The notes beneath the pieces are model-generated. The model saw only the letters and a list, made by a program, of their open reading frames with translations, ran no database searches and had not been told where the DNA came from. Of a DNA stretch of 64,000 nt, positions 3,935 to 43,308 are shown piece by piece. The stretch spans positions 47,740,001-47,804,000 of the forward strand of contig OX597822.1 of assembly GCA_951406725.2 (NCBI GenBank), in the 5' to 3' direction. The position numbers and the translations under genes are program-made. Numbering within the stretch: the first letter of the stretch is position 1; each line of letters opens with the position of its first letter. This DNA comes from Octopus vulgaris. Its lineage: Eukaryota.

Positions 3935-4120
3935 TATTATTATTTTTTTCAAAAGTTACGGATGTATGTATGTATCTATATTTATAAATCTTTTCCATAC
4001 TCTTTCGATTTTCCTCATCACCAATCCCTTTTTGAATAAGCACCTGGACTTAACATTATAATTTCTCTCTCTCTCTCTTTCTCTCCCCTCCATCTCCGTT
4101 TTTTTTATTTTTACCTCAGC

Positions 4121-4156
4121 CTTTCCTGACAAAGAGCGTAGGCTCGAAACGTCAAG
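4121..4156 (+). ncRNA. Minimal hammerhead ribozyme-like motif (Penelope type), core mutated
   Basis: CTGACAA(A)-GAGC-gtag-GCTC-GAAA-CG-TC: stem II hairpin identical to the copy at 29513 and one base different from 43119. G8 is replaced by A. Confidence 0.6.
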
Positions 4157-12512: not shown

Positions 12513-15153
12513 TCTCGTTCATTTGACTGCACCACCTTTAAGAGCTTTAGTTAATTAAATTGACCCCACTCCCCAATACTTTTTACCTCCCCCATTACTG
12601 AATGCCTATGTGCACCCTTTCTTACGCGTCTTTGTTGAGTGTTACTCCCATTTTGGGAGTGTTTACCTCAAGTAATTGACACATATCTATTTACACCAGA
12701 ATGCACCAACACAGGCGCGGGATACACTTTAGCGACATCAAATCGAAGAACGGTCTTCGTCGTGTATTACAATTGAATTCACATGAAATGATGTATTGTT
12801 TATTTTGTAGCAGTGAAACCCTATGAGGGGGAGCACGCATGCAGAATAGTAAGTAAATTTGGGCTCCACAGTAGTTATACATATATTAAGGGCTCCATGA
12901 AAAAATGCTGCTTTGCAAGAAACGGCTGCGTTTCTTTTTCTAAGTGTGATAAGCACAGTGATTTTGGAAGAAATATCAATAAAATTAGTTTTCAAACTTC
13001 GAATGGCTATGGGGTTCTTACCAGAGTAAAATATTAATCAATGTGGTTGGGAAGCAAGCTTCATACCACACAGCCACGCCTACGCCTACCGTATCAACGA
13101 TTCTAGTCTGCCGCCGGAACACTACCGAGCGTCTTAATCTTCCTCAATCATTATCGTTAAATACGTTTTTTAGACTTTATAGCCCAGATCAAAACGTCAT
13201 ATCAGATTAATGTGTGGATCCGGTCCTTGTTGACGGGCCAATGATATTAAACTGATTTTTAGAACGAGGTGAAGAATTAGAGACTACCTCCTTTGCGACG
13301 AGTTGGCCTAGTATTGCAGCATTTACTGGATTTTGCCCATCTTTGAGAATGGCTTTGCGGTTAAGAAGTTCGCTTTGCGCGGCACTATGTACGTGTCTTC
13401 TACTATAAGCCCAGGCCGGCCAGCGAATTTTTTTTTCCTACGAGTGTTCCGGACCCTAGTTTTGAACTCATTTGCATACAACCAATCAGAGCTCAACTAT
13501 CAAACTAAGTTATGGGTGCATAACAAGTAATAAGGTCACTTGGGTTAGGAGTGACCATGCTTCTTTTCTCTTTTAAGAATGCTTGTTGTTCTTGTTTCAA
13601 ACATGGCTTACTTTGTAAAAAAAGTAAGGGGAGAGCGTTGCTAGCACATCACCTTCTACCCACGTTTATCCCATCCTCATCTTTACTATATAGGGCCCTA
13701 ACAAAATCCGATAATAGGTATAGATGCAAATCTAATTACTTGTCTCCTTCTAAAATCAGGCATAACTTGGCGATCGGTCACTTACAACACCATTCTTCGT
13801 CTTGAGTTTACTTGGTAGAGTGTGTTTTTAGCTTGTCAACAAGGTCAAGGTGAGCTCTGATTGGCTGTATGCAAATGAGTTCATTACTGGGCTCCCGGAC
13901 TCTCGTGGGGAAAAAAATTGCGGCCGGCCATTGCCTTGTGAATGGATTTGGTAGGTGAAGGCCTATTGTGTAAGTGTATTTGCATTTGTTCCCCACTCTT
14001 TCCACTCCTCATAACCGGCAATGGTTTGTTTACGTCTCCCTAATTTTCGGCTAAAGGAATCGATAGAATAAGTACCATACTTCAAAATAGAAAAATCATA
14101 AGTACTGGGGTCGTTCGGGTAAAACCCTTCAAGGCACTGCCCCAGCATGTCCGAGTTCAATTGCTGCAACAAACTAACGACATAAGGTAAAAGACTCCAC
14201 CAACAACATTATTCACGTTTACGAGACCAGGATGAGGGGCAGGGCGGGGACAGTTCAGTTTTCTAAATTTGAATTTCATAATTGGATTTTGGGGGTTCGC
14301 TAAGAAAAATCTGGGTTCTTTTGGACGAAGGTCAGACCTGCCTGATCGACAAACCTATGATCAAAAGTAGTCCAGTCGCGACTCTCCTGTCTTTTCTTCT
14401 TCCTCCTTTTATTTTTCTTTCTCTTATGTCCTTATTGAACCACAGTGGAGTGTACTTGAGCAAGATTTGACTGCCATTTTCAGAAATTCGAGCGAGCTTG
14501 CAGAGGCTTCCTGTTTATTCTTCTTGGCTGCGATGGTGACGTTAACGATACTGATGCTGCTTACGACGACGAGACGACGACGACATACGACGACATACGA
14601 CGATGGTGGTGGAGGAGGTTGCGGGGATGGTGGTGGTTGTGGTGATTACGCTGTTTTGCTTTTACTCCCGATCCACAAGTACTTTAATTCACCTAGAAGG
14701 TCGTTGCAGCCAATGGGACGCTTAGAAACCAGGCACCAATATCCTGGATATATATCATAATTTGTGTTCTGCTAGTTGTTGTTGGTAATGATAATCATGA
14801 TACGGTAGGATGTCGAAGTGATGACATATAAGGGTGTTATCGATGATGATGATGATATGAATGTTGTGGTCGTGATGATGGTGGTAGGAGAGAATTCGAC
14901 GTATGAAATATATTGGCGATGACGCTCCTGGTGTTGTATGTATTTATGCTTACGTGTGTGTTTGTGTGCGCGAGCCCGTGCGTGTGTGCGCGCGCAAGCG
15001 ATTAGCTAAATAACACCGAACACAAGATGATAAATCAATTTATATCGATTTCTAAACACCCTCCTTCCTACTTTCCCCCTGAGAGTAGCACGAAAATAAC
15101 TCGATCTGTAGCATTAATGTTCGTATGTAGCTGAACAAACACACCAATGCTTG

Positions 15154-29422: not shown

Positions 29423-29607
29423 GGGAGAGTTCACAAAAAAACAAAAGACGAAGACAGGTGGTGTAGAAAACTAACTGATGTATAAGTATAACGCTCAGGA
29501 ATAGAAAAAAATCTTTTACGTTTCGAGCCTACGCTCTACTACAGAAAGGGACAAAAAAACAAGGAGAGAAAAAAATGTGTATAGTGGCTACCGATTTATC
29601 ATGGCGA
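29423..29607 (-). mobile_element. ~190-bp hammerhead-bearing non-autonomous Penelope-like element in (TA)n
   Basis: End-to-end homologous to 43051-43248 (TCGCCATGAT...ACTCTCCC). Hammerhead motif at 29513-29548; (TA)n on both flanks. Confidence 0.8.
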
Positions 29608-30730
29608 CTGATTATATATATATATATATATATAAGGCTATCCTTCGGTATTGGCCTACGACGTCATCCACCCTGTTTTTTTCTTTTCAGCCTAGCCTCT
29701 TTATCATGTCATGAGGGAAAGATGTATGGGTGAATGACGTTGTGTACAAAAAGCGATGGATTGCTTTCCACCACGCACACACACACACCCATGTATGTAT
29801 GTATGCATGCATGCATGCATGCACATAGAGCGCTGGCCTCGTTCAGTTTATATTGCATCATCTTCTCAGCTATTTCACATTTCTGACACGGATCAGAGAT
29901 GAATCTCTGCCTGAAGAAGCCACTAATCTCACCTATGCAACATTCTCAGACAATGTACTACACGTTTATCCCCACAACAAGACCTTGTGAACTGACGTGT
30001 GTAGAATTAGTTGTACTGGCTAAATTACACTTTGAAATTCCTGTCCTAAACGTGAACACAATGTGTTTCAACTGATTTGCGGGGTTTTATCGAGTTATTC
30101 GGTTTTCTTCAGACATTGCCGCGGCTGTTACTGAACGTCTCAAATACGTTGGGCGAGCTATGGAGTATGTAGCAACGGAATGCAATAAAATCGCTGTAAC
30201 ATAGCAACACAATATACTTCGTGTATGTATGTCTATGAGGGTTAATAAAACAAAATATATATTGCTCTACTGAGGACAATTTGTAAAGAAATAACCACTT
30301 ACACACATGGGCAGATGGCAACACACACACACACACGTATGTATGCATGCATATACATTTCCGACAGACATTGATGGTAGTAATACTTAACAGCACAAAA
30401 TACAATTACTGACTACATATGTAGATGTAATAGTAGGCTTAGTATTACATTTAAATACTGACTACAAATATAAGTAGTAGCAGCAGCAGCAGTAGTAGTA
30501 GTAGTAATAGTAGTAGTAGTAGTAACAACAACAACAAAAACCACATATCTGTTGATATGTTAGCAGTACAATACATTTCAGTAATGGTCGCTTGTATCGT
30601 TATAATTGTAGTACAAACTATATTTAAATGCTTCTCGCATGTGTGTGTGTATACATACATACATACATGCATGCATACATACATACATACATACATACAT
30701 GCATTACATACATGCATTACATACATGCAT

Positions 30731-42963: not shown

Positions 42964-43032
<69 letters not shown>

Positions 43033-43050
43033 TGGCGATATATATATATA

Positions 43051-43247
43051 TCGCCATGATAGATCGTTGGCCATTACACACATTTTTTTCTCTCCTTGTT
43101 TTTTTTTTTTCTGTGTCCCTTTCTGTAGAAGAGCGTAGGCCCGAAACGTAAAAGACTTTTTCTATTCCTGGGCGTTATACTAATACATCTGTTTGTTTTG
43201 TATACCACCTGTCTTCGTCTTTTGTTTTCTTTTTCGTAAACTCTCCC

Positions 43248-43248
<1 letters not shown>
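43051..43248 (+). mobile_element. ~190-bp hammerhead-bearing non-autonomous Penelope-like element in (TA)n
   Basis: CTTT-CTGTAGA(A)-GAGC-gtag-GCCC-GAAA-CG-TA-AAAG at 43119-43154. Homologous end to end to 29423-29607(-); (TA)n on both sides; inverted duplication of its 5' 10 nt at 43029-43038. Confidence 0.8.

Positions 43249-43308
<60 letters not shown>

Follow-up and report, generated by a model that had tools for sequence, protein, structure and literature searches.

A lineage of Penelope-like retrotransposons in Octopus vulgaris carries a minimal hammerhead motif with U at core position 6

The 190-bp repeats found twice in the window, by which we mean the whole 64,000-nucleotide stretch of Octopus vulgaris DNA analysed here, are 5'-truncated 3' ends (solo pseudo-LTRs, pLTRs) of an autonomous 4.2-4.5-kb Penelope-like element. 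Their minimal type I hammerhead motif differs from the canonical CUGANGA core of such hammerheads in having U at position 6 (U6), and this holds throughout the lineage. The kind of element is a known one; the lineage-wide core variant is apparently new, a judgement we regard as provisional. Comparison with related sequences shows that U6 is derived and specific to this Penelope-like lineage. We think it somewhat probable that the U6 core is a ribozyme with crippled catalysis which the element retains for its RNA structure, and that the element retrotransposes without efficient self-cleavage. The role of the hammerheads of Penelope-like elements is an open question (PMC8557442, PMC4209133), and this genome offers a natural matched pair, an A6 sister family and a larger, recently active U6 lineage with the same layout and target, which makes the need for cleavage directly testable.

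The window contains one copy on each strand, copy A and copy B (Table 1), which are 85% identical over 198 columns (E 3e-60, within-window comparison), are flanked by (TA)n and both terminate in ACTCTCCC. The earlier note, made from the sequence alone, had described these two repeats, their flanks, the U at position 6 in both and a hammerhead parse consisting of stem I CUUU/AAAG, the core, stem II GAGC-GUAG-GC(C/U)C, GAAA, CG, U16.1 and A17, all of which holds; with stems I and II, an extra nucleotide 9.1 and a palindromic stem III, the minimal type I layout is complete. Some details need amendment. The string CTGTAG(A/T)A of that note is the 7-nt core plus extra nucleotide 9.1, and its A9U change is private to copy B. 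The common 5' start TCGCCATGAT is the modal end rather than a fixed one, as 5' ends vary among 90 core-selected copies, and copy B, rightly placed at 29423-29607, starts a few bases earlier and reaches 29611. Both copies belong to an older subfamily, whose mean distance from its majority is 8.6%, and are 73-76% alike to the young pLTR; a young open-frame copy has pLTRs 76% identical to copy A. The short TA run at the 3' junction belongs to the element itself, and in full-length copies the 5' UTR comes after it. The small inverted duplicate beside copy A reproduces on a small scale the inverted, 5'-truncated copies that Penelope-like insertions typically have (PMC8557442). A degenerate relative elsewhere in the window may be a remnant of an ancestral A6 state, or a double mutant. 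Rfam gave no hammerhead among the 150 of 198 window matches listed, nor on copy A alone, and a canonical A6 control was likewise without a match.

Table 1. Features of the two repeat copies and their surroundings, in window coordinates
Feature	Positions	Strand	Remarks
Copy A	43051..about 43248	+	Solo pseudo-LTR, 5'-truncated 3' end of Penelope-like element; N7=A subfamily
Minimal type I hammerhead motif, copy A	43119..43154	+	From sequence; stem covariation seen among relatives
Copy A stem I	43119-22/43151-54	+	CUUU/AAAG
Copy A core CUGUAGA	43123-29	+	U6 at 43126
Copy A extra A (position 9.1)	43130	+	From sequence
Copy A stem II	43131-42	+	One private mismatch
Copy A GAAA	43143-46	+	From sequence
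Copy A palindrome ACGU	43146-49	+	From sequence; position 17 at 43150
10-bp inverted duplicate of the 5' end of copy A	43030..43039	-	From sequence
(TA)n target tract 5' of copy A	42968..43029		From sequence
(TA)n target tract 3' of copy A	43248..43299		From sequence
Copy B	29423..29611	-	Solo pseudo-LTR, same subfamily as copy A; (TA)n on both sides; from sequence comparison
Copy B hammerhead motif	29513..29548	-	U6 at 29541; private A9U at 29538; stem II intact
Degenerate old relative with the same stem II	4093..4155	+	Core CUGACAA (A6 but G8A)

Longer copies of the repeat, followed upstream, run seamlessly into one frame with reverse transcriptase (DKG, YIDD), a CX4CxxC linker and GIY-YIG, which bears out the suggested link to Penelope. 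In one full-length locus (L064) the order is a partial pLTR, a short TA run, ~820 nt of 5' UTR, the ORF, a 3' UTR and a second pLTR, the unit measuring 4,199 bp and both of its pLTRs being 88-89% identical to copy A; the 190-mer is the pLTR end of a pLTR-ORF-pLTR unit, in agreement with its first reading as a solo pLTR. A protein search of the genome returned 26,152 candidates, and among the 86 that were scored, 83 are free of stops in the 498-residue match and 26 have open frames of at least 1,000 residues. Twelve of these, picked for long frames, are 98.4-99.8% alike over ~3 kb; their frames have 1,104-1,214 residues, with YIDD, DKG and YIGQTGR in one frame in every case, and six of them have both pLTRs, in units of 4,478-4,573 bp with pLTRs 97-99.8% alike. 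Two long frames submitted to Pfam both gave RVT_1 above the cut-off (E 6e-8 and 2e-7) and GIY-YIG below it (E 0.008). The linker between the two domains reads CSRPRCRTC, which fits the CX2-5CxxC of Neptune/Nematis, and the closest outside relatives, ~55% identical with both domains present, are unnamed or annotated as uncharacterised animal proteins. Judged by these features the element is of the linker-bearing (Neptune/Nematis) type and recently active; by inference, its preference for (TA)n would favour Neptune over Nematis (PMC8557442). The intact frames belong to a younger N7=U subfamily, and no intact ORF was present in 20 loci found via the 5' region of the N7=A subfamily. In loci L427-L438 of the youngest subfamily the open frame overruns the usual end of the endonuclease into a pyrimidine-rich 3' UTR, which gives variable Pro/Leu/Ser tails.

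To follow position 6 we counted exact pattern matches over the whole genome, with stem II fixed in one set of patterns and left free in another. With stem II fixed there are 15,954 U6 and 184 A6 matches, so that U6 is a trait of the family and not a private mutation; with stem II free the counts are 23,139 and 7,611. Reversed-pattern controls gave 0 matches for the fixed patterns and 5-6 for the free ones, and chance is therefore excluded for the U6 motif. The fixed-stem U6 matches comprise 4,992 with A7 and 10,962 with C, G or U at position 7 (U 55, C 29 and G 16 among the first 100 listed), and U6 spans subfamilies with A, C, G and U at that position; a further 114 matches have C6 or G6 with A7. 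Shifting the register so that A6 comes one base further on does not work where N7 is C, G or U. The genome-wide core is predominantly U6, rather than the canonical CTGANGA that would have made the window copies mere mutants. One practical consequence is that a descriptor search that insists on CUGANGA overlooks three in four of this genome's hammerheads of the present build (23,139 of 30,750 matches).

The same result was obtained from loci selected in other ways. Loci chosen by UTR or ORF, not by core, have U6 in 25 of 25 motifs, which come from 17 of the 20 loci, and the 12 loci chosen by open frame have it in all 19 motifs, so that young copies show it in each of their two pLTRs. When the genome was searched with copy B, 40 of 2,014 candidates were scored and 30 loci fetched; position 6 is U in 29 of these and C in one, with no A. 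In the old subfamily, searched with positions 6 and 7 free, the first 100 of 594 matches listed have U6 in 79, C6 in 14, A6 in 6 and G6 in 1. Contigs from four runs list a change at position 7, while at position 6 no change reaching 10% is listed; a second contig comparison, also of four runs (organisms A-D), shows no change at position 6, but none at the known-variable position 7 either, and was set aside. Separately, the 14 C6 rows in the old subfamily compare with 2% C6 beside the N7=A subfamily and possibly represent a C6 sub-lineage. Two U6 copies (L381:600-640 and L382) have a different stem II and loop (a UUCG loop, one mismatch) and perhaps represent a further subfamily.

The 184 A6 copies with matched stem II seem mostly to be sporadic mutations, at a frequency of ~1%. 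This reading is based on a flank tree, in which 30 A6 copies are interleaved among U6 copies, on the identity of position 7, which is shared with the nearest U6 copy in 20 of the 30, and on a frequency like that of ordinary mutation. Position 7 in the first 100 of these A6 matches listed is U 34, A 29, G 24 and C 13. We had considered them as canonical sister subfamilies and dropped this idea in view of the interleaved tree, the shared N7 and the six A6 rows among the 100 listed for the old subfamily.

Across related elements both stems of the motif covary, with 96% of 152 cells paired and compensatory change in 7 of 8 pairs among 19 informative, hand-picked rows (one row, L373, gave no cells); 0 of 500 shuffles reached the cell value, a count that carries no probability because the rows are related. 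Stem covariation and the connection to Penelope ORFs, whose joint lack the earlier note had named as a reason to discard its proposal, are thus both found. When the majorities of the subfamilies are compared, N7 and N17 are the sole differences within the 36-nt motif, whereas in the flank downstream of it 82-90% of the aligned columns agree; three of the four groups compared were chosen by motif, which leaves the old group as unbiased, along with the UTR/ORF-chosen loci and the open-frame loci.

This conservation bears on the idea that the motif is a dead relic with no role as RNA, kept by overlap with DNA promoter elements of the pLTR or by the youth of the subfamilies. The Penelope promoter is internal and lies within the pLTR (PMC2377424), and inside the U6 lineage the stems are invariant and hence show no covariation, both of which would suit a relic. 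Against it, copies with UTRs just 67-77% alike have the same motif apart from N7 and N17, and the 20 nt that the search pattern left free do not differ between the majority sequences of the old and the N7=A subfamily, even though they include CpG sites; we consider a relic improbable.

The matches with A6 and stem II free are of a different nature. Those listed among the 7,611 belong mostly to one homologous sister family, which has the same solo-pLTR build and (TA)n ends as the U6 lineage and differs from it in loop II, of 3 nt with A6 versus 4 nt with U6; by match count the U6 lineage is three times as large. In the sister family, by eye, 5' ends pile up ~75 nt upstream of the core (L352-L380, e.g. 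L356:1420-1640). As outgroups we took 80 metagenome loci encoding relatives and searched them with a descriptor with positions 6 and 7 free. This gave 26 matches, of which 25, in 20 loci, have A6 and one, of another architecture, has U6. U6 is the derived state, since A6 is kept both in the sister family of the same genome and in 25 of 25 outgroup hammerheads of this build.

The reading we lean towards, a crippled core kept for its structure, draws in part on folding models. U6 would allow a U4-G5-U6/A15.1-C-G helix, which would lengthen stem II into a rod and make the ACGU palindrome inaccessible for the cleaving dimer. The predicted pairing between position 6 and A15.1 is 0.50-0.98 in all seven U6 cores folded (three of them identical) and 0.00 in ten of ten natural A6 cores; these folds are of 35-36-nt fragments without protein, and in MFE they are better than the open fold by no more than 0.4-2.6 kcal/mol. 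A change of A6 to C lowers hammerhead cleavage (PMC3088659, PMC7151607), and in an element from anole, hammerhead mutants leave insertion in vitro unimpaired (PMC11167929). Several observations weigh against a crippled core. A6C, the sole position 6 change with data at hand, is slow rather than dead, cleaving at 0.33 per min at 10 mM Mg2+ and near normally with Mn2+ (PMC7151607), and the anole hammerhead cleaves only on addition of its protein (PMC11167929). Variation of the motif only at N7 and N17, positions that are free in working hammerheads, next to a flank 82-90% alike, is what would be expected if the RNA still cleaved. In favour of a crippled core, no fewer than 23,139 copies include the part of the core that precedes the cleavage site, so uncleaved RNA served as their template; but solo copies in which the core is whole number in the thousands for the A6 sister family as well, and uncleaved templates are thus not special to U6.

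Several of these points would fit a U6 hammerhead that still cleaves usefully in vivo, as a partial-tandem dimer helped by protein or by another metal, with U6 acting as a brake until protein binds. The retention of both stems and of the other core positions and the clade-wide covariation argue for such activity, as do the protein-assisted cleavage in anole (PMC11167929), the rescue of A6C by Mn2+ or high Mg2+ (PMC7151607) and the occurrence of short tandems that put two hammerheads ~400-500 nt apart. We nevertheless judge this unlikely, though it deserves serious weight: the sister family and every outgroup motif of this build have retained A6, position 6 gives the impression of relaxation and not of tuning (14 of the 100 listed old-subfamily rows have C6), and the palindrome is predicted to be sequestered in the U6 folds. 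More tentatively, the A6U change may have switched the hammerhead off while the rod fold was kept through at least four subfamily radiations, so that Penelope hammerheads would serve protein binding or template structure, or U6 may make cleavage strictly protein-gated; we put this forward as a real possibility that falls short of being probable. If true, this would be natural evidence that such hammerheads are kept to bind protein or to structure the template and not to cleave, or that U6 puts cleavage under strict control of the protein.

Insertion was surveyed in 90 copies from one contig, chosen by the U6-A7 core only, five of them near-duplicates of others. Their 3' end is fixed at the short internal TA run, with a TA-type repeat directly after it in 59 of 90 by a strict pattern; U6 copies in general, like copies A and B, sit in (TA)n, as the earlier note had it. 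The 5' ends range from 2 to ~400 nt upstream of the core, with 44 at 57-70 nt, 34 closer and 12 further; the sample, which required an intact core, gives no view of ends at the cleavage site. In all six young copies with two pLTRs the upstream pLTR extends 500-1,414 nt above the core. Within 800 nt a second direct copy is present in 5 of 90 cases and an inverted one in 4 of 90.

A second 3' end lies ~270 nt downstream of the first, within the 5' UTR, and resembles it in sequence (L132-L159, ~1740-1800 in element orientation). Among the 30 best matches to the 5' UTR, 20 jump from this second end to varied points in the pLTR, 2, both from a single locus, terminate at it in (TA)n, 5 go on in the direction of the ORF and 3 do otherwise. 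The products are short pLTR-UTR-pLTR tandems, with the 5' UTR included and variable junctions, and are a possible route to retrozyme-like arrays.

These ends suggest how the short copies could arise. The protein would nick (TA)n and prime reverse transcription inside its own RNA, at the TA run ~100 nt downstream of the core. Most cDNAs would then come to an end 57-70 nt above the core, at what is probably the RNA 5' end (a start site in the pLTR), to give the 190-bp product, and some would re-prime at the second site ~270 nt further downstream and give the short two-hammerhead tandems. We infer the RNA start near the 5' pile-up, with reverse transcription running off the 5' end, from the positions of the ends; microhomology to (TA)n or a pause of the reverse transcriptase at a small hairpin could also produce the pile-up. 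The anole element has two internal start sites in vitro, with a spacing shorter than here (PMC11167929).

It had also been proposed that the repeat is a separate non-autonomous mini-element, or a retrozyme-like family replicating as a 190-nt unit. The narrow peak in its length, with 44 of 90 copies having 5' ends inside a 14-nt interval, would fit such a unit, as would a summed contig depth that in four runs is ~thousand-fold higher over the pLTR than over the 5' UTR and is not a measure of copy number; these data are contigs, which cannot show ends, strand or circles. The spread of 5' ends and the seamless passage of longer copies into the ORF speak against it, as does the lack of 190-mer arrays, with a second direct copy within 800 nt in 5 of 90 cases. 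The autonomous RT/GIY-YIG partner that was to be sought does exist, and its full-length open-frame copies share the same U6 core, whereas the 190-mers are dispersed monomers of variable 5' length. The proposal is dropped, and an independent retrozyme seems to us extremely improbable.

Most features of the element have precedents. Earlier work describes pLTRs with minimal hammerheads, truncated copies that stand alone and insertion targeted to (TA)n (PMC4209133, PMC8557442, PMC6765202, PMC2377424, bioRxiv 10.64898/2026.07.22.740005). The EN+ Penelope-like elements with a Zn-finger linker, Neptune and Nematis, likewise have a single frame of RT and C-terminal GIY-YIG with a CX2-5CxxC linker, and share with the octopus element pLTRs in partial tandem, extensive truncation at the 5' end, inverted duplicates of that end, a preference for microsatellites and a hammerhead near the 3' end; the octopus element differs from them in its U6 core, and its second 3' end, ~270 nt downstream, contrasts with the 30-40-bp tail of those elements (PMC8557442). 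Many EN+ members also have a spliceosomal intron in the pLTR or 5' UTR. Metazoan Penelope minimal hammerheads have in common with it nucleotide 9.1, G10.1-C11.1, a palindromic CG stem III, a short stem I and mostly solitary occurrence, and our 25 A6 outgroup motifs match a coral example in the supplement of the same paper; the core variant given there is U3-A8, as against U6 in the octopus lineage (PMC4209133). The hammerhead of phage Bcep176 has a natural position 6 change and its cleavage is reduced, but the base is C, in a single example with a full stem III, whereas the octopus lineage has U in tens of thousands of copies of a recently active retrotransposon (PMC3088659, PMC7151607). The non-LTR retrozymes of animals are also short pLTR-derived units with type I hammerheads and many monomers; they form tandem repeats with a complete hammerhead in each consecutive unit, unlike the octopus copies, which are dispersed truncations of a coding element (bioRxiv 10.64898/2026.07.22.740005).

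The apparent novelty of U6 is relative to the sources consulted. A 2017 paper on dimeric Penelope hammerhead variants is reportedly the largest survey of such variants. The U6 core was not found in the literature searched or in the searchable supplements of PMC4209133 and PMC8557442; that survey, or entries in Repbase or Dfam, may already include it. An octopus repeat annotation lists recently active Penelope-like families and, in its available portion, does not mention ribozymes (PMC13282606).

Two further features of the window were observed. A weak match to U2 snRNA at 13163-13345 (+), with 30.7 bits against a gathering score of 46 bits, is perhaps a pseudogene. An abundant short interspersed repeat, putatively a tRNA-derived SINE, adjoins copy A from ~43505 (+) and is also found beside many of the other loci.
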